Assembly: GCA_029975745.1 (NCBI GenBank)
Contig: JARKOL010000155.1
Location: 1-60,142 of the forward strand
Reading direction: 5' to 3'
Source: Myxococcota bacterium
Lineage (GTDB): Bacteria; Myxococcota_A; UBA9042; DTJE01
Length of the DNA stretch: 60,142 nt
Part shown: positions 2,121 to 12,722 of the stretch, in pieces
Position numbering within the stretch: position 1 is the first letter of the stretch
How the letters are laid out: each line of letters starts with the position of its first letter
The notes under the pieces: model-generated
The model's database searches: none
What the model saw: only the letters and a program-made list of their open reading frames with translations
What the model was told of the DNA's origin: nothing
Position numbers and translations under genes: made by a program

Positions 2121-3833
2121 ATGAAGGCGCCCCGCCCGTCCCTGGTGGTCCTGCTGGCCTTGATGCTGGCGGGCGTGCCCGCCTGGGCCCAGCTCGAGTC
2201 GTTGCTGACGAAGTCCCCGAGGCCCGGGGCCGCATCCTCGACCGAGGGCCCTGGGGGGGAGGACGCGGGCCCCGCGAGGGCTCGCGCGACGCACGCCCGG
2301 TCACCCTCGACCTGCGGCAGTCCCCGGGCTGCCGTCGCCACGTTGCTGGACGCGCTGCAACCCGATCGTCACCAGCCGACGGCCGCCGCCCGATGCCTGG
2401 ACGCCTCCCGCCTGGGACCGGACACGCCGACGGCCCCCAGCCTGGCGGTCAAACTGAAGCAGGTGCTCGACGCACGGGGTCTGTGGGTCGATCTGGAACG
2501 GATTCCCTCGGACCCCGACTTCGTCGATGGCGCCGGCCAGCACCGATTCGACCTGTTTCCCGGCATCCTCCAACTGGTCTACGTGGAACGGCAGGAGGAC
2601 CGCTGGGTCTTCCCGGCCGACGTGGTCGAGCGTATTCCCGCGATGTACCGCGCCACATTCCCCCTGGACGTGCGGGCGATGATCGAGGTCATGCCCTCGT
2701 GGCTGCGCATGCCCGTCGCCGGGGCACGCCTGTGGCAGTTGACCGGCGTCTTCCTGCTGGTGCTGCTGGCCCTGGTGCTGCAGAAGGTCATCGTCTGGAT
2801 GACCTCGGTCCACGTCCGACGGCTGGGGCGCAGGAACAACGTCCGCTGGACCCTGGCCGCCGTCGCGCGGGCGGGCGCGCCCATGGGCGGGCTGGCGATG
2901 GCCGCGGTCTTCTGGGTCGGGTTCCCGCTGCTGGACTTCACGGTGGGCATCAACCGGGTCGTCCTGTTCGCCACCCGGGTGCTGTCCATGGGCAGCGTGG
3001 TCTGGCTGGGCTACCGGATGGCCGACGTGCTGTCCGACTTCATGCTGGAGCGTGCCGAGCGCACCGAAACGAAACTGGACGATCAGCTGGTGCCGCTGGT
3101 CCGCAAGAGCCTGAAGGTCCTGATGGTCGTGATCGGCGGCCTGTTCATCCTCCAGAACCTGCACGTCGATATCGGATCGCTGCTGGCCGGCCTGGGCCTG
3201 GGCGGCCTGGCCTTCGCCCTGGCGGCGAAGGACACCGTCGCCAACCTGTTCGGGTCCGTCATGATCTTCGTGGACCGGCCGTTCCAGATCGGGGACTGGA
3301 TCCGGATCGGGGACGTCGAGGGCACGGTCGAGGAGGTCGGCTTCCGCTCGACACGCATTCGGACATTCTACAACTCGTTGATTACGTTTCCGAACGCGCG
3401 ACTGATGGACGCGGCGGTGGACAACCTGGGGGCCCGGCGGTACCGGCGCTACTCGACAACCCTGAGCCTGACCTACGACACGCCGCCCGAGCGAATGGAC
3501 GCATTCTGCGAGGCGCTGCGCCAGTTGATCCGGGAACTGGAGGGGATGCGCAAGGACTACTTCATGGTCGAATTCAAGGAGTACGGGGCGCACTCGCTGG
3601 ACGTGATGCTGTACTGCTTCATGATCGCGCCGGACTGGGCAACCGAGATGCGCATCCGGACGAACCTGAACCTGGAAATCCTGCGCATCGCCAAGCGGAT
3701 CGGCGTTTCCTTCGCTCTCCCCACGCGGACCATCGAGTTCGCGTCGGGGTTGCCCGCGCTGCCGCCCCAGGCGATGCCCAGGGCCCCGATGGTCCAGGAC
3801 GAATCACTTCGGCAGGAATCCCGCCGGAGCTAG
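2121..3833 (+). CDS. MscS-family mechanosensitive ion channel with a long N-terminal periplasmic/TM extension
   Basis: 570 aa with a GGGAGGA SD, a signal peptide and several TM helices. It has the canonical MscS beta-domain block FQIGDWIRIGDVEGTVEEVGFRSTRIRTFYNSLITFPNA. Confidence 0.9.
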   Translation: MKAPRPSLVVLLALMLAGVPAWAQLESLLTKSPRPGAASSTEGPGGEDAGPARARATHARSPSTCGSPRAAVATLLDALQPDRHQPTAAARCLDASRLGPDTPTAPSLAVKLKQVLDARGLWVDLERIPSDPDFVDGAGQHRFDLFPGILQLVYVERQEDRWVFPADVVERIPAMYRATFPLDVRAMIEVMPSWLRMPVAGARLWQLTGVFLLVLLALVLQKVIVWMTSVHVRRLGRRNNVRWTLAAVARAGAPMGGLAMAAVFWVGFPLLDFTVGINRVVLFATRVLSMGSVVWLGYRMADVLSDFMLERAERTETKLDDQLVPLVRKSLKVLMVVIGGLFILQNLHVDIGSLLAGLGLGGLAFALAAKDTVANLFGSVMIFVDRPFQIGDWIRIGDVEGTVEEVGFRSTRIRTFYNSLITFPNARLMDAAVDNLGARRYRRYSTTLSLTYDTPPERMDAFCEALRQLIRELEGMRKDYFMVEFKEYGAHSLDVMLYCFMIAPDWATEMRIRTNLNLEILRIAKRIGVSFALPTRTIEFASGLPALPPQAMPRAPMVQDESLRQESRRS

Positions 3834-5053
3834 CGGATTTCCTGGTGCTGGCCCCCGGGTACCACGCCGGGACCCGCGTCGAACACATAGACGGCGTTGG
3901 ACATCAGCCCGGTGACGTACAGCCGACGACCGCCGCCCGCGACGTCGCCGACCGCCATCCCGTACGGATTCGACGACAGCGGCAAGCTGGCCCAGAAGGC
4001 CAGTTCGACGCCCGTCGCCGCATCGATGGCACGCACGTTGTTGTCACCGCTGTTCAGGATCAGCAGCCGGTCGCCGTCCAGAAGCAGGCTGTTGGGAAGG
4101 CTGCCGGTCCCGGCGAAGTTTCCAAAGACCTGGGGCGTTCCCGCGCCGAACGTGACCGCCGCGATGCGACTGGCCATCCCCAGCAGCAGGTACAGATTGG
4201 GCGGACCGTCCGGGCGCCACGCCGCGGCGAGAATGCCGTCCATGCTGCCCGACACGCCGACCTCGAAGGACAGCCCGTCGATCGGGGCGCCCGTGACGGC
4301 GTCCAGCACCCAGACTCGATCACGGTTGAAGCTGGCCGCGATCAGGCGCCCGGGGGATCCGGGAATCACCGTAAGCGTGTCCTGATCGCCGGCCGCCCCA
4401 AGCAGGACGGGGTTGTCCGGCCCCCGGACCAGCCTGCCCGCCCCCAGGTCCGCCTGGAACAAGGCCGCGGCGGTTCCGCTGCCCATCCAGGCCCGGTCGC
4501 CGACAATCGCCAGGGAGGATGGGTAGCCGACCAGAGGCCGCGAAGGGTCCAGGGGCAACCGGATCACCCGGTCCGGCGCGTCGGCCGTCGCCAGACCCGC
4601 AAGGGGGATGCCCACCAGGGCCCCCTCGCCGTCGGGAATCACCAGCGCCCCGTCGAACCGGGTCTGGCCGGAGCACAGGATCCAGACACGGTCCGTGCCG
4701 GTCGCGACGACCTGGGCATTCTTCGCGGCAAGCGGAATCCGGTTGACCACCCGGGCGGTGCGACGGTCCACCACGGTCGCGAATCCCTCGCGGAAGACCA
4801 GGCCGGCCCCGTCGAATCCGTACCGGCTGTTGGCCACCACAAGGTAGTCGCCGGCAACGGCCAGGCCCTCGGGCGCCGCGAAGTTCGTGGGGGGCAATCG
4901 ATCGTCGCCGGAATCGGAAGGCGCGGCCCCGTCGCGCCACGCCCCGCCGCCGTCCGGTCGAAGCATCGCGTCGGGCATGGGCTCGCATCCGGCCAGCGCC
5001 AACCACGCGAGCGCGGCGCCTCCCAGCAACAGGCTGCGGCAGAATCGCATCAT
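3830..5053 (-). CDS. YVTN/YncE-type beta-propeller lipoprotein, last gene of the riboswitch-controlled btuB-like operon (BtuG-like role proposed)
   Basis: Start ATGATG at 5053 overlaps the stop of the upstream receptor gene (ATGA). Lipobox LALAGC. Repeated blade motifs: LVVANS, VWILCS, AWMGSG, VWVLDAVTG, LLILNSGDNNVRAIDAATG, LYVTGLMSNAVYVFD. The 759-aa version in the ORF track reads through into the shadow of the receptor gene. Confidence 0.75.
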   Translation of the reverse strand: MMRFCRSLLLGGAALAWLALAGCEPMPDAMLRPDGGGAWRDGAAPSDSGDDRLPPTNFAAPEGLAVAGDYLVVANSRYGFDGAGLVFREGFATVVDRRTARVVNRIPLAAKNAQVVATGTDRVWILCSGQTRFDGALVIPDGEGALVGIPLAGLATADAPDRVIRLPLDPSRPLVGYPSSLAIVGDRAWMGSGTAAALFQADLGAGRLVRGPDNPVLLGAAGDQDTLTVIPGSPGRLIAASFNRDRVWVLDAVTGAPIDGLSFEVGVSGSMDGILAAAWRPDGPPNLYLLLGMASRIAAVTFGAGTPQVFGNFAGTGSLPNSLLLDGDRLLILNSGDNNVRAIDAATGVELAFWASLPLSSNPYGMAVGDVAGGGRRLYVTGLMSNAVYVFDAGPGVVPGGQHQEIR

Positions 5054-6951
5054 CGTCGCCCCCTTATCGTCAGAAAGACGGACCGCCCAGGCAGCGGGCG
5101 TTGCAGGTGATCGACCCCGTCCCGCTTGTCGGTCAGGTTCATGGCATCCACGGACAGCGACAGCAGGGACGAGAACGCCCAGTCCAGGCGGGCATCCAGC
5201 CGGAAGCGTGCCTCCTCGGACAGCGACTCGAATCGGTCCAGGAACACGCCGGAGCGCCAGCCGGGCATCGCCGAGATCCCGACGGGTCCCAGGCGGACCG
5301 AGGCGGTTCCCTGGACCTCGTGGGCGGGCCGCTGGGGCATCCGCAGGCCGGTGTCGCCGAACCGGGCATCCAGGAACGTGTAGGCAGCCCGAAGGTCGAA
5401 CCATCGCCACGCCCAGCGTGCCTGGAGTTCCACCCCCCGCACCACGGCACCGCCCGAGTTTTCCGCACGCACCAGGAAGGCCGATCGGGGCAGGAACAGG
5501 ATCAGGTTGCGCACGCGGTTCTCGAAGTAGGTCGCCGTCACCCCCCAGGGCCGGCCATGTCCCAGTTCGACGCCGGCGTCCCAGGTCAGGGCATCCTCGG
5601 GCGCCAGGTTCGGATTCCCCTGGACGAACCCAGCGTCGAAGTGCAGTTCCTCCAGAGTCGGCAAGCGGAATCCCCGAGAGACATTGGCGAACAGCCGCAG
5701 CGGTCCCCAGGGGTCGTACCGGACCCCCAGCGCGGGGATCGCCCGGACCCCGAAGCCCTGATCCCACCCGACCCGCAGGTCCAGCGTCGTCTCGAACCGG
5801 TCCGATGGCGGGCCGAAGCGCCCCCGGATCCGGCCGGACACGGTCGTGCGCGAGGGCGCCCCCGGCCTGGCTCCCAGTCGGCGGGCTTCCCCGAGGTCGT
5901 GCCCGGCGTCCATGCCGGCCCCCAGAGCGACCCAGGGATGCAGCCGGCCCTCGGTGGCCGCATCGACCCCCACTCCGTGCGCGATCAGCGTGGTCGCCGT
6001 CGGCGGCCCCGAAGGCGGCGCCGAGTCCTGGTACGCGAAGCCCAGTCGGCGGTAGAACGCCGACGCCCGGGTCCAGCCACTGTCCCCGAAGAGCCGTGGC
6101 CCTTCCCATGCGACACGAGTCACAACCCGGGTGTCCTGCTGGCGGGCGGTCGTCGAGGGATACTGCTCCAGGCCGGCAATCTGGCGACGCCCCAGGGCCC
6201 CCTCGACCATGCCGTCGATCCGGTGCCCCCCGGACAGTCGTGCCGCGACCCGCCCCATGCCCTGGAATCCCAGGGTCGCACTGTGGTCCCGAACCCGGCG
6301 GATCCCGTTGGTATCGACAAACTCGAAGGCACCGTCCGAGGCCATCAGACCGCCGCCGACCAGCATCCCGACGTCGTGCGGCCCGACCTCCCAGACATGC
6401 GCGTGCGACGCCTTCAGCCGCACTGTCGAGAACGAACCCGCGGTCAGGCTGGCCCGCGTGTCGGGACCGTCCAGCGGGTCGAGGGTCCGGGCCGCCACGA
6501 CGCCCCCCACCGCGTCGGTGCCGTGGGACGCAGAGCGGCCACCGCGGACGACATCCAGCGTGTCCAGGGGCACCAGCGCCAGCGCGGACAGGTCGGCCCC
6601 GCCCAGGAAGGGCGAATTCAACGGCACCCCATCCAGGGTCGTCAGGGTGGCGGACGGATCGGTCCCCCGCACCGCGACGACGGCGGCCTGGCCGGGCCCC
6701 CCCACGGACAGCACCTGGACCGAGGGCAGCCGGGCTACCGCTGCGGCGGGCCCGTCGGGCGCCTCCAGGACGGCCGGCTCGGAGACGCGATCGCCGCGGA
6801 CCGACCGGGGAGCGGTCCGATCCGGGGTCGGGTCCGGGTCACCCACGACCTCGATCGACGGCACGACAACCGCCTCCTGGGCCCGGGCGGACGCCCCCGG
6901 GGCCGACAGCGCGGCGATCAGGAACAGCCTGGCAGCCCGTTGCCGCATCAT
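5050..6951 (-). CDS. btuB: TonB-dependent outer-membrane receptor, BtuB-like (cobalamin/corrinoid uptake inferred from the riboswitch)
   Basis: 633 aa with a signal peptide ending ASARAQE. Plug-domain blocks are VAVRGTDPSATLTTLDGVPLNSP and LDVVRGGRSASHGTDAVGGVV. It falls in the roughly 600-aa BtuB size class. ATGA overlaps with both neighbours, and a cobalamin riboswitch lies upstream of the operon. Confidence 0.8.
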   Translation of the reverse strand: MMRQRAARLFLIAALSAPGASARAQEAVVVPSIEVVGDPDPTPDRTAPRSVRGDRVSEPAVLEAPDGPAAAVARLPSVQVLSVGGPGQAAVVAVRGTDPSATLTTLDGVPLNSPFLGGADLSALALVPLDTLDVVRGGRSASHGTDAVGGVVAARTLDPLDGPDTRASLTAGSFSTVRLKASHAHVWEVGPHDVGMLVGGGLMASDGAFEFVDTNGIRRVRDHSATLGFQGMGRVAARLSGGHRIDGMVEGALGRRQIAGLEQYPSTTARQQDTRVVTRVAWEGPRLFGDSGWTRASAFYRRLGFAYQDSAPPSGPPTATTLIAHGVGVDAATEGRLHPWVALGAGMDAGHDLGEARRLGARPGAPSRTTVSGRIRGRFGPPSDRFETTLDLRVGWDQGFGVRAIPALGVRYDPWGPLRLFANVSRGFRLPTLEELHFDAGFVQGNPNLAPEDALTWDAGVELGHGRPWGVTATYFENRVRNLILFLPRSAFLVRAENSGGAVVRGVELQARWAWRWFDLRAAYTFLDARFGDTGLRMPQRPAHEVQGTASVRLGPVGISAMPGWRSGVFLDRFESLSEEARFRLDARLDWAFSSLLSLSVDAMNLTDKRDGVDHLQRPLPGRSVFLTIRGRR

Positions 6952-7715
6952 TCCTGCACGTACCGGGCGATGACCCCGTCGATGTCGGCTCCGTTCGACG
7001 CGGGATCTCGCACGTAGGGCGCCCCGGTGTCCGGATTGGTCCGCGACGGGGCCGTCACCAGCATCAGGAAGCGGAAGCCGTCTTCCCGGATGGCCCGCGC
7101 GTCGGGATCGTCCAGGGGCAGGTCGTCAAGGTCGAACGGGTCGCCCCCGGCCGCGGCGTGATCGAACGGATCGACCGGATTCGATTCGACGTGGAACCGG
7201 ACCGGGTACCGGCCTGCGAACCCCGGCCACAACTCGGGATCCGCCACGTACGTCTCCTCGTCCTGGGCGATGTAGTCGTGGGGAAACGGCACCCAGTTGG
7301 TGCCATCCCGGGACAGGTACACGATCGCCAGGTCCATGAAGACGCGGCCTCCGCCGATCTCGAATGCGTTCTCGAACACGACGAAGTCGATCCCGTCGCC
7401 GTTTCGTACCCAGGCGCCCCCCCAGGACAGGACCAGGGCGTTGTCGATGCCCTCGGCGTATCCCAGGCTGAACACGTCCGTGCCGCCGCCGTGGGTGCCG
7501 CCGCCCCGCACGCCGTTGACCGCCCGCAGCGAATCCCCGTGCCCCTCGCCGGTGTGCCCGGGGGCATCGACCACGGTGTCCGCGACAACCCCCGGAGGCG
7601 TCCATCCGTCCGGCCAGCCCCCGGCGGCATCCATCACGTCCCCGACGGGGTCGGACACGGAGCCGCATGCGACGGCCAGCAGCCACGCGCCCCCCAGGGC
7701 GACCCAGGTTCGCAT
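6948..7715 (-). CDS. Lipoprotein of unknown function (beta-sandwich-like), second gene of the btuB-like operon
   Basis: Start MRTWVALGGAWLLAVACGS (lipobox AVAC) at 7715. The stop overlaps the btuB start (ATGA). Coding-like composition; conserved-looking block GIDFVVFENAFEIGGGRVFMDLAIVYLSRDGTNWVPFP. The upstream 17 codons in the ORF track were not used. Confidence 0.7.
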   Translation of the reverse strand: MRTWVALGGAWLLAVACGSVSDPVGDVMDAAGGWPDGWTPPGVVADTVVDAPGHTGEGHGDSLRAVNGVRGGGTHGGGTDVFSLGYAEGIDNALVLSWGGAWVRNGDGIDFVVFENAFEIGGGRVFMDLAIVYLSRDGTNWVPFPHDYIAQDEETYVADPELWPGFAGRYPVRFHVESNPVDPFDHAAAGGDPFDLDDLPLDDPDARAIREDGFRFLMLVTAPSRTNPDTGAPYVRDPASNGADIDGVIARYVQE

Positions 7716-7785
7716 CGTCACGACGCCCTCCCAGCGGCGCCGTCCGGGTGCCTCGGTTCGTGGCACCCGGACGGGCCGGCACTTC

Positions 7786-8214
7786 CTAGTCCGCGGGCGT
7801 CAGCAACGTCCAGCCGAATCCGCCACAACCGCTGTTCGCGGGGTCGGTCGCGTCGGGTGCCTGGGTGGTTCGCGCGGCGTCGCGACTCTCGTCGGCGTAC
7901 GCGACCTGGCACAGGAACAGGTCCCCGGCATGCTCGGCCCAGTCGAACCGGCTCCACATGTCCGGGAAGTACTCGTTGGCGGCGTCGTTCCGGGCCACCA
8001 GCCAGTTTCCGCCGTTGTCGAACTCGGCGATGTTGTAGCGGCCCATGCCGGCCAGCACCAGTACCTGCGACGTGATCTCGACGGCATTGCCCCACTGGTC
8101 CGTGTAGCGGCCCTCGATCTCCAGGGAACCGTCCGACGACTCGCACCCCGCGAACGCCAGGACGCACCCCAACACCAGGATCCACGATACCCTCACGTGC
8201 TGCGATCTGTTCAC
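7786..8214 (-). CDS. Small lipoprotein of unknown function, first gene of the btuB-like operon
   Basis: 142 aa. GTG start with a GGGAGGG SD 4-5 nt upstream. Lipobox AFAGC. It lies directly downstream of the riboswitch. Confidence 0.7.
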   Translation of the reverse strand: MNRSQHVRVSWILVLGCVLAFAGCESSDGSLEIEGRYTDQWGNAVEITSQVLVLAGMGRYNIAEFDNGGNWLVARNDAANEYFPDMWSRFDWAEHAGDLFLCQVAYADESRDAARTTQAPDATDPANSGCGGFGWTLLTPAD

Positions 8215-8324
8215 CGAACCCTCCCGTTCCGGGCAGGGCGGCGACGGGGCCCGTTCAGGTTCGCTTGTCCAGGGACGACGAACGAGGGTGGGGCCGCATC
8301 GCTTCCTCCCGAAACCGCATGCGT

Positions 8325-8478
8325 TGCGGACGGCGGCGAGTGTCCTGGCTCCCGGATCCCCCTCCCCCAGTCCTTCCCGGCATCACCCGACGCCAGTGGT
8401 TCTTCTGGGTTCGTCCCCGGTTACAGTTGCGGGGGCAGCGCCGGCATCGCACCGGCTTCCTGCACCATCCGTCCGGGC
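8325..8478 (-). promoter_or_regulatory. Cobalamin (B12) riboswitch aptamer
   Basis: The minus-strand RNA is GGACGGAUGGUGCAGGAAGCCGGUGCGAUGCCGGCGCUGCCCCCGCAACUGUAACCGGGGACGAACCCAGAAGAACCACUGGCGUCGGGUGAUGCCGGGAAGGACUGGGG...GGGAGCCAGGACACUCGCCGCCGUCC. It carries the conserved core strings GGAAGCCGGUG, GCUGCCCCCGCAACUGUAA and CCACUGG, plus a B12-box-like AGCCAGGACACUCGCC. The aptamer is closed by P1 GGACGG (8469-8474) / CCGUCC (8328-8333). Confidence 0.85.
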
Positions 8479-8481
8479 GGC

Positions 8482-8509
8482 ATTATATCCCGGGCGAAGG
8501 ACCTGGCAA
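8482..8509 (-). promoter_or_regulatory. Sigma70-type promoter for the riboswitch/btuB-like operon
   Basis: On the minus strand, TTGCCA (8504-8509) is followed by a 16-nt spacer and TATAAT (8482-8487), immediately 5' of riboswitch P1. Confidence 0.55.
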
Positions 8510-8594
8510 GTCCGACCGGCGGCAATCCGACCGGCGGCGACTCCGTGGAACCGGGATGCTTCCGGCAAGTGACGAACGGGGTCCCCGATGCGGC

Positions 8595-10016
8595 TCAGGG
8601 AGGCAGGTCTTCCCCCTCGGTCCGCGCGATCACCACCGCCCCGCACGAATCCGAGAAGATGTTCACGGCCGTGCGCGCCATGTCCAGGACGCGGTCCACG
8701 ACCAGGATCAGGGCCATGCCCTCCAGGGGCACGCCGACGGCCTCGAGAATCACGACAATCGCGACCAGCGAGGCCTGGGGCACCGCGGCGACTCCCACGG
8801 AGGTCAGCAGGGCGACGGCCACGATCAGGAACTGCTGGCCGAAGGTCAGGTCGATCCCGTACGCCTGGGCGATGAACACCGCCGCGACGCACTCGTACAG
8901 GGCGGTGCCGTCCATGTTGACCGTGGCGCCCAGGGGCAACGTGAACCCCGCCACCCGGTTCGAAACGCCCGCCCGACGTTCGACGCATTCCAGCGTGACC
9001 GGCAGGGTCGCGGCGGAACTGGCCGTCGAGAAGGCCGTCACCAGGGCCGGCGCCATGTCGCGAAAGTGCCTGGCCGGACGTCGCCCCCCGATGAACTTCA
9101 GCAGCAGGGGCAGGAACACCCCGATGTGAACCGCCAGCCCCGCCCCCACCGTCAGCGAGAACAGCACCAGCACCTGGACGAAATCGGCCAGACGCCCGTC
9201 CAGGACCAGCCTCCCGTAGGCGTCCGCCAGGGTCGATGCAATCAGCGCCGCGATCCCCAGGGGGGCGAACCGCAGCACCAGGTCGGTGATCCGCAGTGTG
9301 ATGTCGTAGATCCCCTGCCAGAAGGCCTCGACCACCTCGCGGGGTCGGCCGACCATGCGGGACAGGAAGTAGCCGATCAGCAGCGACACCGTGATCAGCC
9401 CCAGCAGACGCCCGTTGTCCGCCGCCGCCGCGAACAGGTTGCCGGGCACCAGTTCCCGGATCGTGTCCAGGAAGCTGGAGGCCCCCCGGCCCGCCACCCG
9501 CTGGGCGACCAGGGCGCCCTCGTCGGCGAAGCGCTCGGCGAAGTCCCGCGTCGTGGCCAGGTCCAGAACGGGACTCGCCGGATCCGTCACCCCGGGCCGA
9601 ATCACGTTCGCAAGCGACAACCCGATCAGGATGGCAACCAGGCTGGTGGTCAGATAGTAGGCGACGGTCTTGGCCCCCAGCCGGGCGAAGCCGGACCGTC
9701 CCCCCAGCCCCGCCATCGCCGTGATCAGCGACGACATGACGATCGGCACGACAATCAGTCGCAGGCCGTTCATGAACAGGTCGCCGACCAGCCGATAGAC
9801 CGCAAGATCGGCGCGGTCCGCCAGCGCCGCCTGGGCCGCGCGAACGCGGGCATCCGGAGGCACGTCGCCAGGCACCGACAGCACCGAAAGGTGGCCCGTC
9901 AGCAGGCCCAGGCCGACCCCGACCCCCAGACCCAGCAGGATCTGCCAGTGCAGGGCCCAGCGCCACGGAAGCCACTTCCGGGGGGTGGGAGGCGCGATGT
10001 CGTTCGGGGCATCCAT
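8595..10016 (-). CDS. Dicarboxylate/amino acid:cation symporter (DAACS, GltP/DctA family)
   Basis: 473 aa and polytopic. Family blocks are PLGATVNMDGTALYECVAAVFIAQAYG and LTSVGVAAVPQASLVAIVVILEAVGVP. Confidence 0.9.
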   Translation of the reverse strand: MDAPNDIAPPTPRKWLPWRWALHWQILLGLGVGVGLGLLTGHLSVLSVPGDVPPDARVRAAQAALADRADLAVYRLVGDLFMNGLRLIVVPIVMSSLITAMAGLGGRSGFARLGAKTVAYYLTTSLVAILIGLSLANVIRPGVTDPASPVLDLATTRDFAERFADEGALVAQRVAGRGASSFLDTIRELVPGNLFAAAADNGRLLGLITVSLLIGYFLSRMVGRPREVVEAFWQGIYDITLRITDLVLRFAPLGIAALIASTLADAYGRLVLDGRLADFVQVLVLFSLTVGAGLAVHIGVFLPLLLKFIGGRRPARHFRDMAPALVTAFSTASSAATLPVTLECVERRAGVSNRVAGFTLPLGATVNMDGTALYECVAAVFIAQAYGIDLTFGQQFLIVAVALLTSVGVAAVPQASLVAIVVILEAVGVPLEGMALILVVDRVLDMARTAVNIFSDSCGAVVIARTEGEDLPP

Positions 10017-10122
10017 CGCGTCGAGTGTACCAGCATCCGGCGGGATCCGGCCGGTCCGACGCGGGTTGATCCGGCGGACCGGTTCGTGACACCATTCCCC
10101 CGCCCGTCACGAGGGACGCCTC

Positions 10123-12722
10123 ATGAGGATCCGGCCAAGACCCCACGACAACTGGTTGACCACGTCCACACTGGCGATTCTGGCTGTCTCGATTGCGCTG
10201 GCGTCCTGCGAGGGAGGCGACGGCGCCGCGGACGCCGTGACGCCGGATGCGCCCCCCCCCCGCAGGACACGGTCACGGATGTCGCCGACGATCCGGGCGT
10301 CGATGCCGTGCCCGACACCCCGATCCCGACCGACCCGGGGAACTCCACGGACGTGCCGGACTCGGACCCGTCGGATGTCTTCGCGACCGATGAAGGTCCG
10401 GCCGACGTCTGGTCGTTCGACGTCACGATTCCGGAGTCGCTGGGCGGCGACCGGCCGGCCACGCTCCACGTGCCCGCCGGCTACCGGCCCGATCGGTCGT
10501 GGCCGCTGATCGTCCTGCTGCTCGGCTACGGGGTCTCGGGCTACATCCAGGATCTGCTGATGCAACTGGCCCCCCGGGTGGACACGCACGGATTCGTGCT
10601 GCTGCTCCCGGACGGCACGGTGGACGGCGACGGCTTCGGGTTCTGGAACGCCTGGCCGCCCTGCTGCAACTTCTTCGAATCGGATGTGGACGACGTTGGC
10701 TACCTGCGCGGGCTGATCGAGGAGGCCCAGGCCACCCTGAACATCGACGCGGATCGCGTGGTGCTGATCGGGCACTCCAACGGCGGCTTCATGTCCACGC
10801 GCATGGCCTGCGAGACATCGGATCTGGTCACGCACATCGCCCCGATCGCGGGCTCGATGTCGCTGGAGCCCGCGGACTGCACCCCGGCACGCCCGGTTTC
10901 GATGCTGGCGATTCACGGCACCAAGGACAACGACATCCGCTACGAAGGCGGTTCGATTCGGGGGTTCCCCTACGTGGGCGCCGAGGACCTGGTGGCCTTC
11001 TGGCGGGGCCTGAACGGCTGCACCCCCACGACCGTCGCCGGCGACGCGATCGACTACGACACGGGCGTACAAGGCGACGAGACCTCGACCGTGACCTGGC
11101 CCGAGTGCGCCGACGACACGCGGGTGGCGTTGTGGACGATGACGGGCAGCGGTCACGCCCCGGGATTCACCGATGCCTTCCGGGACGACCTGGTCTCGTG
11201 GCTGCTGGCCCGGAAGCGGGCCGCCTCCAGACCCTCGACCCTGCCGGACCGCCTGGAGATCACGTTCGCGCGCCCCGAGTCCGGCGAGCCGGTGGCCGAC
11301 GTCGAGATCCAGGCGTTCACCCGCAAGGTGCTGCGTTTCCTGCGGGACGTCCGCTACTTCGACTACGTGCTGTACACGACGCACGGCGTGGACAAGTCCA
11401 CCGGGCTGCCGGACTGGCAGTTCTGGTACAACGAGCGCTTCCGCAAGGACGGCGATACCGTCACCTTCTACCACCCGGTGAACCTGAACGACGGCGGCCA
11501 CAACCTGCACATTCCGTTCGGCCACGTCCTCAGCCAGGTGCTTTCGGCCTACCTGCTGGTGGGCGACCCGTCGGCGGCGCTGGCGGCCGAGCAGTTGTGC
11601 AAGGGTCTTTCCGCCTCGATGCTGGGCATGGTCCACGACGCCGACGACCCGCTGCCCCACCTGATGGCCCGGAACGTCGTGGCGTTCAACCACGAGTTCC
11701 TGACGCACGACGGCAAGAAGAAGGCCATCGACGTGACCGGCTGGTACTCGGACTACACCCGCTGGAACTGTGACCGCTTCCAGTACGTGGACAATCCGTT
11801 CTGGGGCCCGATGTGGGTCACGAACATGCGCTCCAAGGACGACGTGCCGCACCTGTTCCGGATGATGCCGTCGCTGCGATACGCGGCCGTCCAGGCCACC
11901 GACGCGCCGGTCAAGGAGGCCTGCGGTCAGGCGCTGACCCTGATGGAGGCATTCGCCAAGGACATCGTCGATTCCGACTATCGCATCCGGACGAAGGACG
12001 CCGACGGCACCCCCTACATGCCGGGATTCACGGGGGACCCGGAAACCGACCAGAAGCAGGGCGACCTGGCGTCCTTCATCCACTGGCGGGACATCGTCCC
12101 CGAAGGCGAATGCAACGCGCGGCGCGGGGCCGAACTGATCGGCTACCACCGGCCGGTGCGCGAGGACTGCGGCCGCGGCGAGCCCAATGCGTACGACGAC
12201 ATCGCCTTCCTGGGCAACGCGTACAACAAGCGGATCTGTCGGTACTTCCACCTGGCGCACGTCGGGAACGCCCTGGTCAACCGGGACGAAGGCGCCCTGC
12301 TGCTGCTGGACGGGCTGGACGAACGTCTGGCCCAGGAGCGGGCCGTGCCGGAGAAGGACATGCAGGCGACGCCCGACAAGTGGTCGCGCGACCTGGCGGT
12401 GTACCTGGCCGACAGCGCGACCTTCGGATACCCGCTGGACTGGGACGACGTGCGACGCATCCAGCGCCACTACGGCCGGGCCATCGACGAGATGGCGGCG
12501 TGGCCGTACTGGGACCCGTGGGCGGAATCGGTCCCGGATGGCGACCTGGGCGGGTATCGGCCGGGATCGTGCTCGGCCGGCCAGGCCGAATGCTGGTTCT
12601 CGGTCGAGGATCTGGCGCTGATCTTCGAGACCTGCTGGTCGCCGCTGCGCAACCCCACCGGCAAGCCCTACGTCGATTGCGACATCGTTCGCGACCCGTC
12701 CCGGTGGGACGATCCGGCCTGA
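10123..12722 (+). CDS. Lipoprotein with a PHB-depolymerase/LpqC-family esterase domain fused to an uncharacterised C-terminal module of about 500 aa; the frame is broken at a C10 tract
   Basis: ATG at 10123 (GAGGGA SD) encodes MRIRPRPHDNWLTTSTLAILAVSIALASC (lipobox LASC). After the C10 run at 10252-10261 the coding signal continues in another frame as QDTVTDVADDPGVDAVPD... to the stop at 12722. Esterase blocks are WPLIVLLLGYG, FWNAWPPCCNFFESDVDDVGYLRGL and VVLIGHSNGGFMS (GxSxG). The span is 2600 nt, which is 3n+2, so one extra C would restore an 866-aa protein. Confidence 0.7.
10252..10261 (+). repeat. C10 homopolymer at the frameshift point of the esterase lipoprotein gene
   Basis: The sequence gatgc-g-cccccccccc-gcagg was read directly. 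The signal-peptide frame and the enzyme frame meet exactly here. Confidence 0.9.

Follow-up and report, generated by a model that had tools for sequence, protein, structure and literature searches.

A cobalamin-riboswitch operon joining a BtuB-like receptor to a YVTN/YncE-type propeller lipoprotein in Myxococcota

The closest described counterpart of the locus reported here is the BtuB-BtuG system of Bacteroides thetaiotaomicron (BtuG1/2/3; PDB 3DSM, 8BLW, 8PTD, 8PTF; PMC6143338, PMC10404256), in which a vitamin B12 (cobalamin) riboswitch is followed by genes for a TonB-dependent receptor and a seven-bladed propeller lipoprotein. B12 is bound by BtuG in the cavity at the centre of the propeller (PMC10404256), and according to Wexler et al. 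homologues of BtuG occur only in Bacteroidetes (PMC6143338). The same order of elements was found in a 60,142-nucleotide stretch of DNA, hereafter the window, from a Myxococcota bacterium (GenBank assembly GCA_029975745.1, contig JARKOL010000155.1), where a cobalamin riboswitch precedes four genes named g1 to g4. The third of these encodes a BtuB-like receptor and the fourth a propeller lipoprotein. An earlier note, made from the letters of the window, had proposed a receptor-plus-propeller arrangement of this kind outside Bacteroidota.

Three further systems bear on the comparison. Escherichia coli YncE, encoded beside the TonB-dependent receptor PqqU/YncD (PDB 3VGZ, 7SEU), is likewise a seven-bladed YVTN-type propeller next to a cofactor receptor; among the best fold matches of g4 it is the bacterial propeller that is encoded next to a receptor. 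YncE is, however, a soluble periplasmic protein whose gene is divergently transcribed and not under riboswitch control, whereas g4 is a lipoprotein translationally coupled to its receptor behind a B12 riboswitch. The surface-layer YVTN propeller of Methanosarcina mazei (PDB 1L0Q) has the same type of repeat as g4 and is its best match in sequence and fold, but it is a domain of an archaeal surface layer, unconnected with B12 or any receptor, so that the likeness is one of repeat family and not of function. Finally, LIC_13355 and LIC13354 of Leptospira interrogans (NF033170, NF047669; PMC11891782) are encoded by neighbouring genes, as are g1 and g2, with g2 scoring above the LIC_13355 family cut-off and g1 weakly related to LIC13354. 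The Leptospira proteins are studied as host-binding surface proteins and are not reported to be regulated by B12, whereas in the window and in relatives the pair stands directly behind a cobalamin riboswitch.

The operon and its conservation

Using Rfam model RF00174, a cobalamin riboswitch aptamer was identified at 8485-8318 on the minus strand with a score of 87.7 bits, far above the gathering score of 31.5 (E 2.6e-20). The search had been suggested in the earlier note as a check on its riboswitch claim, which it confirms. The match is full-length (model positions 1-189 of 189) and is the only one in the whole assembly, which comprises 4.26 Mb in 408 contigs and is 87% complete. The aptamer lies 104 nt upstream of g1 and is co-oriented with it, in an operon that includes the BtuB-like receptor gene; promoter, riboswitch and all four genes are on the minus strand.

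The receptor is encoded by g3 (6951-5050, minus strand, 633 aa). It carries both the plug (PF07715, 51.7 bits) and the barrel (PF00593, 121.3 bits) of a TonB-dependent receptor. Its best NCBIfam model was TIGR01779 (TonB-B12) at 119.5 bits, below the equivalog cut-off of 599.7, and among solved structures E. coli BtuB came first (E 6e-20) and chains of Bacteroides BtuB next. Since its score is far below the equivalog cut-off, it is named BtuB-like and not BtuB. The propeller is encoded by g4 (5053-3830, minus strand), a 407-aa seven-bladed YVTN/YncE-type lipoprotein with the lipobox LAGC (Cys23). The two upstream genes encode lipoproteins as well: g1 (8214-7786, minus strand) has a GTG start and specifies 142 aa with lipobox FAGC, weakly similar to LIC13354, while g2 (7715-6948, minus strand) specifies 255 aa of the LIC_13355 family with lipobox AVAC. 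ATGA overlaps are present at the g2/g3 and g3/g4 junctions, and g1 and g2 are separated by about 64-70 nt. Thus the four co-oriented genes and the overlap of start and stop codons at g3/g4 are as first described, while of the three junctions said to overlap only two do so.

The linkage between riboswitch and propeller was followed in related genomes. The g4 gene was present in 17 of 18 other sampled genomes of the same GTDB family, giving 18 carriers with the window genome included. In 16 of these 18 carriers the contig with the propeller gene also bears a co-oriented RF00174 match, 1.9-4.2 kb upstream of that gene; one of the 16 riboswitches scores below the gathering threshold, and the two carriers without a linked riboswitch are cut by contig ends. 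For 20 loci of more distant Myxococcota, 6 kb of upstream sequence was fetched, and 15 of them proved to have a co-oriented riboswitch in that stretch; these 15 represent at least six further GTDB families. The complete genome of the cultured Bradymonas sediminis is among these 15 (orthologue WP_111336284.1, named "YncE family protein" at NCBI), and three loci labelled as other phyla are also riboswitch-linked. By an estimate that assumes 1-4 riboswitches per 3-6 Mb genome, such linkage would arise by chance in about 0.1% of genomes. The arrangement of receptor and propeller lipoprotein outside Bacteroidota is therefore present in the window and conserved across Myxococcota loci.

In several relatives the operon continues with genes for transport across the inner membrane. 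Peripla_BP_2 and FecCD genes (BtuF- and BtuC-like) stand immediately behind the propeller gene at loci L005, L007 and L008; they are succeeded at L005 by an ABC_tran (BtuD-like) gene, and L006 also has a FecCD gene downstream of the propeller. The resulting order of riboswitch, receptor, propeller and btuFCD is that of the Bacteroides btuB-btuG-btuFCD layout. Extra lipoproteins within the regulon and propellers of the YVTN/YncE superfamily are further traits shared by the Bacteroides and Myxococcota systems. In the window genome the BtuF-like gene is found on another contig (G000:C204; locus L089, 2971-4955), with a FecCD gene at the contig end, and its product is 61% identical to the operon-linked orthologue of L008. 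This gene is the sole Peripla_BP_2 gene of the genome; it adjoins genes for glutamine synthetase and asparagine synthase and has no riboswitch.

The need for the vitamin appears to be large. The B12-binding domain PF02310 gave thirty matches in the genome, 26 of them over the cut-off, and 26 such domains with one riboswitch in 4.26 Mb is, judged from the predicted proteins, unusually heavy use of B12 enzymes. Neither CbiC nor CobS, the two synthesis markers searched for, was found in this 87%-complete genome. The gene content is consistent with dependence on imported corrinoids.

The propeller lipoprotein and its probable role

The only family model matched by g4 was the YVTN repeat model TIGR02276, at 31 bits against a cut-off of 27.85. 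A structure predicted with 20 homologues (mean predicted local distance difference test, pLDDT, 87.5; predicted template modelling score, pTM, 0.86) arranges residues 58-407 as seven groups of four strands, and leaves residues 1-50, consisting of the signal peptide and a linker of about 35 aa, disordered. When this model was searched with Foldseek, 1L0Q ranked first and YncE ranked 7 and 14, with template modelling (TM) scores of 0.71-0.76 on the target. A profile of 60 family members compared with solved structures gave the archaeal surface-layer propeller 1L0Q at E 2e-27, the beta subunit of hydrazine synthase at E 7e-11, 8PTD and 8PTF, both of which are BtuG1 (bioRxiv 10.1101/2024.02.16.580637), at E 7e-9, BtuG1 chain 8BLW_B at E 7e-8, and YncE at E 3e-6. 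BtuG2 and BtuG3 were not among the 60 best profile matches.

Several of these comparisons weigh against reading g4 as a counterpart of BtuG. The profile matches BtuG1 more weakly than it matches 1L0Q, and no BtuG structure was present among the top 50 fold matches. The resemblance to BtuG1 (E about 7e-9) is at the level of the repeats and out of register, C-terminal blades of the query being aligned with N-terminal blades of BtuG1, which argues for shared repeat ancestry and not for orthology. A propeller family, PF16819 (DUF5074), is listed beside DUF4465 proteins in B12 loci (PMC13398666) and was presumed, from that source, to be the BtuG-type propeller; g4 gave no match to it at E up to 0.1, nor did any protein of the genome at E up to 0.01. 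To these points are added the five of 20 distant Myxococcota loci in which no riboswitch was found in the 6 kb upstream, and the fact that related genomes are not independent samples, so that the linkage figure is an estimate and no formal test. A last point comes from E. coli, where YncE, a propeller structurally closer to g4, is encoded beside PqqU, the receptor for pyrroloquinoline quinone (PQQ), and its deletion had no effect on the PQQ uptake phenotype (bioRxiv 10.1101/2022.06.07.495086); adjacency to a receptor is therefore by itself no proof of ligand capture.

With no PF16819 match and no collinear homology to BtuG1/2/3, membership of g4 in the BtuG family was rejected. Two low-GC, Bacteroidota-looking members of its own family, P0143 and P0129, were considered as close BtuG relatives and discarded, as they gave zero PDB sequence matches. 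These comparisons thus place g4 in the YVTN/YncE repeat superfamily that also includes BtuG, and in a separate family within it. The earlier description of a YVTN/YncE-type lipoprotein stands, and the suggested kinship with BtuG does not, since by sequence and fold together g4 is closer to 1L0Q and YncE. Closer kinship with unrelated propellers had been named beforehand as the outcome that would speak against the proposal; in formal terms it does so as regards kinship, not as regards function.

At E 1e-30 or better, the g4 family counts 141 representatives in a set of 1.84 billion clustered proteins. Nearly all full-length members carry a lipobox, and Cys23 is invariant across 60 diverse members. 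The weak matches of these 60 were distributed over BamB-like (18), NHL (13), lactonase (12), YNCE (9) and PF16819 (6) models. Conservation was highest in the B-C loops (0.71), the D-A loops (0.70) and the strands (0.69), and lower in the A-B (0.60) and C-D (0.51) loops; of the top 45 conserved positions, 22 lie in D-A or B-C loops and one in an A-B or C-D loop, the faces of the propeller being assigned from canonical topology. Some members depart from the usual length. P0034, P0036-P0038 and P0040 are of double length (about 800 aa) with the propeller in the C-terminal half, and P0055, P0058, P0059, P0065, P0070, P0077 and P0081 (about 600-650 aa) bear at the C terminus about 250 further residues that match no Pfam family, a layout that recalls BtuG1 with its BtuH-like domain.

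It is very probable that the operon as a whole is a B12-repressed unit for uptake of corrinoids across the outer membrane, g3 importing them with the use of TonB. The receptor score below the BtuB equivalog cut-off would also suit the import of something other than a corrinoid, such as cobalt or another tetrapyrrole, with the riboswitch merely coordinating uptake with B12 status. We regard this as highly improbable: BtuB is the best match of g3 in both NCBIfam and PDB, BtuFCD-like genes complete the operon in relatives, and, in a genome with many B12 enzymes, neither of the synthesis markers searched for was found. For the propeller we favour, with some reserve and on account of its strong and recurring linkage to riboswitch and receptor, a role as capture partner analogous to BtuG. 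Held on the outer membrane by its flexible linker, g4 would bind corrinoids on the conserved loop face and hand them to the receptor. Both the corrinoid binding and the surface exposure of g4 are predictions, which, together with the Myxococcota host, sets the system apart from that of Bacteroides.

In distant relatives from Cloacimonadota, WOR-3 and an unclassified bacterium (L019), C-terminal sorting domains of the type IX secretion system (T9SS) replace the lipobox. Such domains send proteins to the cell surface. The Cloacimonadota and L019 loci with T9SS-tailed propellers are riboswitch-linked and the WOR-3 locus is receptor-linked. Together with the BtuF encoded right after the propeller in relatives, next to which another binder in the periplasm is less to be expected, the T9SS tails lean towards a surface location, as far as gene content and domain makeup can indicate it. 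At the Cloacimonadota locus L011, the T9SS-tailed propeller gene is followed by a gene resembling formylglycine-generating enzyme (9303-10199; FGE-sulfatase domain).

The alternative is that g4 faces the periplasm and acts as a chaperone or shuttle which passes corrinoid from the receptor to BtuF or to the inner-membrane transporter, in the manner of AztD, a propeller that serves a zinc ATP-binding cassette (ABC) transporter. AztD structures are among the fold matches of g4, lipoproteins of diderm bacteria mostly face the periplasm by default, and the window operon itself has no BtuF; E. coli YncE, too, is described as periplasmic (bioRxiv 10.1101/2022.06.07.495086). The shuttle is nevertheless unlikely in our judgement, as it would be redundant where a BtuF-like gene stands right after the propeller, as it does in relatives; the window genome also possesses a BtuF-like protein, and the surface-targeting tails of distant relatives occur in B12 loci. 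Another reading is that the propeller binds no corrinoid at all. It might instead support the receptor structurally or in its assembly, or be an enzyme acting on corrinoids or on a by-product, and be co-regulated for the receptor's sake. The YncE deletion result (bioRxiv 10.1101/2022.06.07.495086) would agree with this, as would the weak resemblance of family members to propeller models of the lactonase, SGL and BamB-like kinds and the lack of any specific likeness to the site at which BtuG binds its ligand. Against it, a catalytic motif was not found in the propeller, and the gene order of B. sediminis and genome G321, in which no receptor gene is interposed between riboswitch and propeller (see below), ties the propeller to B12 and not to one particular barrel, which leaves this explanation rather improbable.

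Promoter, leader RNA and probable control of translation

A sigma-70-type promoter, TTGCCA-16-TATAAT, was located at 8509-8482 on the minus strand, and its -10 box runs into the riboswitch aptamer. It agrees with the consensus at 11 of 12 positions and is the sole such site in 3600-8700, where shuffled sequences lead one to expect 0.1; the near-consensus promoter proposed previously is hence upheld. Upstream the operon is bounded by a gene for an SDF-family symporter on the same strand (10016-8595) and downstream by a convergent gene for an MscS-type channel (2121-3833, plus strand), borders which define the unit as four genes. The stop codons of g4 and of the MscS-type gene overlap (3830-3833), with no space for a terminator between them.

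No intrinsic terminator was found in the leader, and control is therefore probably exerted on translation. A lone terminator-like site at 5095-5082, inside g3, is at chance level. Translational control had also been suggested by the earlier note, on the grounds that 8289-8280 could pair with 8229-8218 and so cover the Shine-Dalgarno (SD) sequence of g1. The two strands are indeed complementary (10 pairs with a 2-nt bulge), but this anti-SD helix is not the favoured structure: when forced, the leader folds at -40.5 against a minimum free energy of -55.6 kcal/mol, a cost of about 15 kcal/mol, and the helix was rejected. The segment concerned makes its own hairpin in every predicted fold.

A better model, on the evidence of the folds, combines two other elements. 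One is a 16-nt SD-like element directly behind the aptamer, GUUUCGGGAGGAAGCG (8315-8300, minus strand), a candidate anti-anti-SD or P13 strand that is identical in the window and at loci L075, L076 and L086. It is predicted to pair with 8226-8232 at a probability of 0.86-0.97, within a candidate anti-SD strand (8238-8226, minus strand). The other is a predicted local hairpin (8244-8211, minus strand) spanning the g1 SD sequence (8225-8219) and the GUG start codon (8214-8212), which forms in the fold of the full leader and also when the post-aptamer element is withheld. At L075, of the same genus, both alternative pairings are kept through compensatory sequence changes, and an equivalent hairpin is present.

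From these fold models we infer the following switch. When cobalamin is scarce, the post-aptamer element (8315-8300) would pair with the anti-SD strand (8238-8226) and leave the ribosome-binding site of g1 free; the four genes would then be translated, the last three aided by the two ATGA overlaps. When cobalamin is bound, the aptamer would capture the post-aptamer element, and the hairpin at 8244-8211 would shut off the SD sequence and the GUG start. Two points count against the model: the leader folds are as stable as those of shuffled sequence (z about 0, the RNA being GC-rich), so that its weight is carried solely by the L075 comparison, and that comparison involves two closely related sequences.

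A candidate upstream open reading frame (ORF) of 14 codons was noted at 8255-8299 on the minus strand, with its AUG at 8299 and, 5 nt before the AUG, the SD-like GGGAGG that belongs to the conserved post-aptamer element. It occurs at L075 with two amino-acid changes and is not retained at L076. Speculatively, it could relay riboswitch control by way of translation, or be due to chance.

The accessory lipoproteins and what the operon may mean

The product of g2 was assigned to the LIC_13355 family by NF033170, at 150.8 bits against a cut-off of 120, and carries the lipobox AVAC noted above. For g1 the score with NF047669 (LIC13354 exoprotein) was 17 bits against a cut-off of 130 (E 0.006), which does not place it in that family; beyond this score, the relationship is indicated by its position beside a LIC_13355 gene. 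The model of g2 (pLDDT 90.8) is a beta-sandwich. Its Foldseek matches were weak (best E 5e-3) and included discoidin/CBM32-type domains, with BtuG1 chain 8blw_B at rank 2 (TM 0.38), a likeness to be taken as a hint only. Assignment of g2 as a binder of the BtuH/BtuJ type was rejected, there being no Pfam or PDB sequence match and no Foldseek match better than E 5e-3. The accessory proteins of this system are accordingly of the LIC13354/LIC_13355 type and not BtuH or BtuJ, as no DUF4465 match was obtained.

The two families recur in B12-regulated loci with and without the other partners. A separate RF00174 riboswitch followed by a LIC13354-like gene and a LIC_13355-family gene was found at eight loci in seven genomes of the same GTDB family (L076, L078, L081-L086). 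In the window and in genomes G274, G079, G022 and G084, this pair is joined to the receptor-propeller pair in one operon. In B. sediminis and G321 the riboswitch is followed by LIC13354, LIC_13355 and propeller genes in that order, without an intervening receptor gene. In a metagenome-assembled genome labelled Pseudomonadota, receptor and propeller genes come first behind the riboswitch, and after them two LIC13354-like units and a LIC_13355-like gene. The recurrence of these four families in varying order speaks for a joint function. On these gene orders the families of g1 and g2 are taken to belong to the B12 regulon in their own right, and the two proteins are probably accessory binders.

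Two variations in gene arrangement were observed around this pair. Ahead of LIC_13355 there are often two tandem copies of the LIC13354-like gene, or two such units within one ORF (L079, L080, L081, L082, L083, L018, L064). L004 has back-to-back cobalamin riboswitches facing outward (3595-3804, minus strand, and 3931-4102, plus strand), as do G079:C101 and G079:C119; one riboswitch leads into a LIC13354/LIC_13355/receptor/propeller operon and the other into an ORF of 661 aa that matched no Pfam family.

No paper was found in the literature on a system of this kind in Myxococcota or Bradymonas. What is new here is the BtuB-BtuG design in Myxococcota, in which the propeller comes from a different family and LIC13354 and LIC_13355 are partners in the regulon. 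A surface propeller on BtuB has been seen in published work as a speciality of Bacteroidetes, and the same design is met here with a propeller of another family. It is conserved across a phylum of predators living in soil and sediment, which make use of many B12 enzymes. Bradymonas sediminis, as a cultured carrier, offers a way to ask whether capture by a receptor with a lid is a general solution for scarce cofactors.

The operon also places two families of unknown function in the B12 regulon, one of which has been studied only as a host-binding lipoprotein of Leptospira, in work that does not mention B12 (PMC11891782). As a tentative and rather doubtful extension, a four-part machine for corrinoid capture at the outer membrane might exist in Myxococcota, Bradymonadia among them, and in some bacteria labelled as belonging to other phyla, composed of a BtuB-like receptor, a propeller that is not BtuG, and LIC13354 and LIC_13355 as unrecognised corrinoid binders. 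If that were true, the LIC_13355 family, known from Leptospira as an "adhesin", would gain its first physiological role, in the acquisition of vitamin B12.

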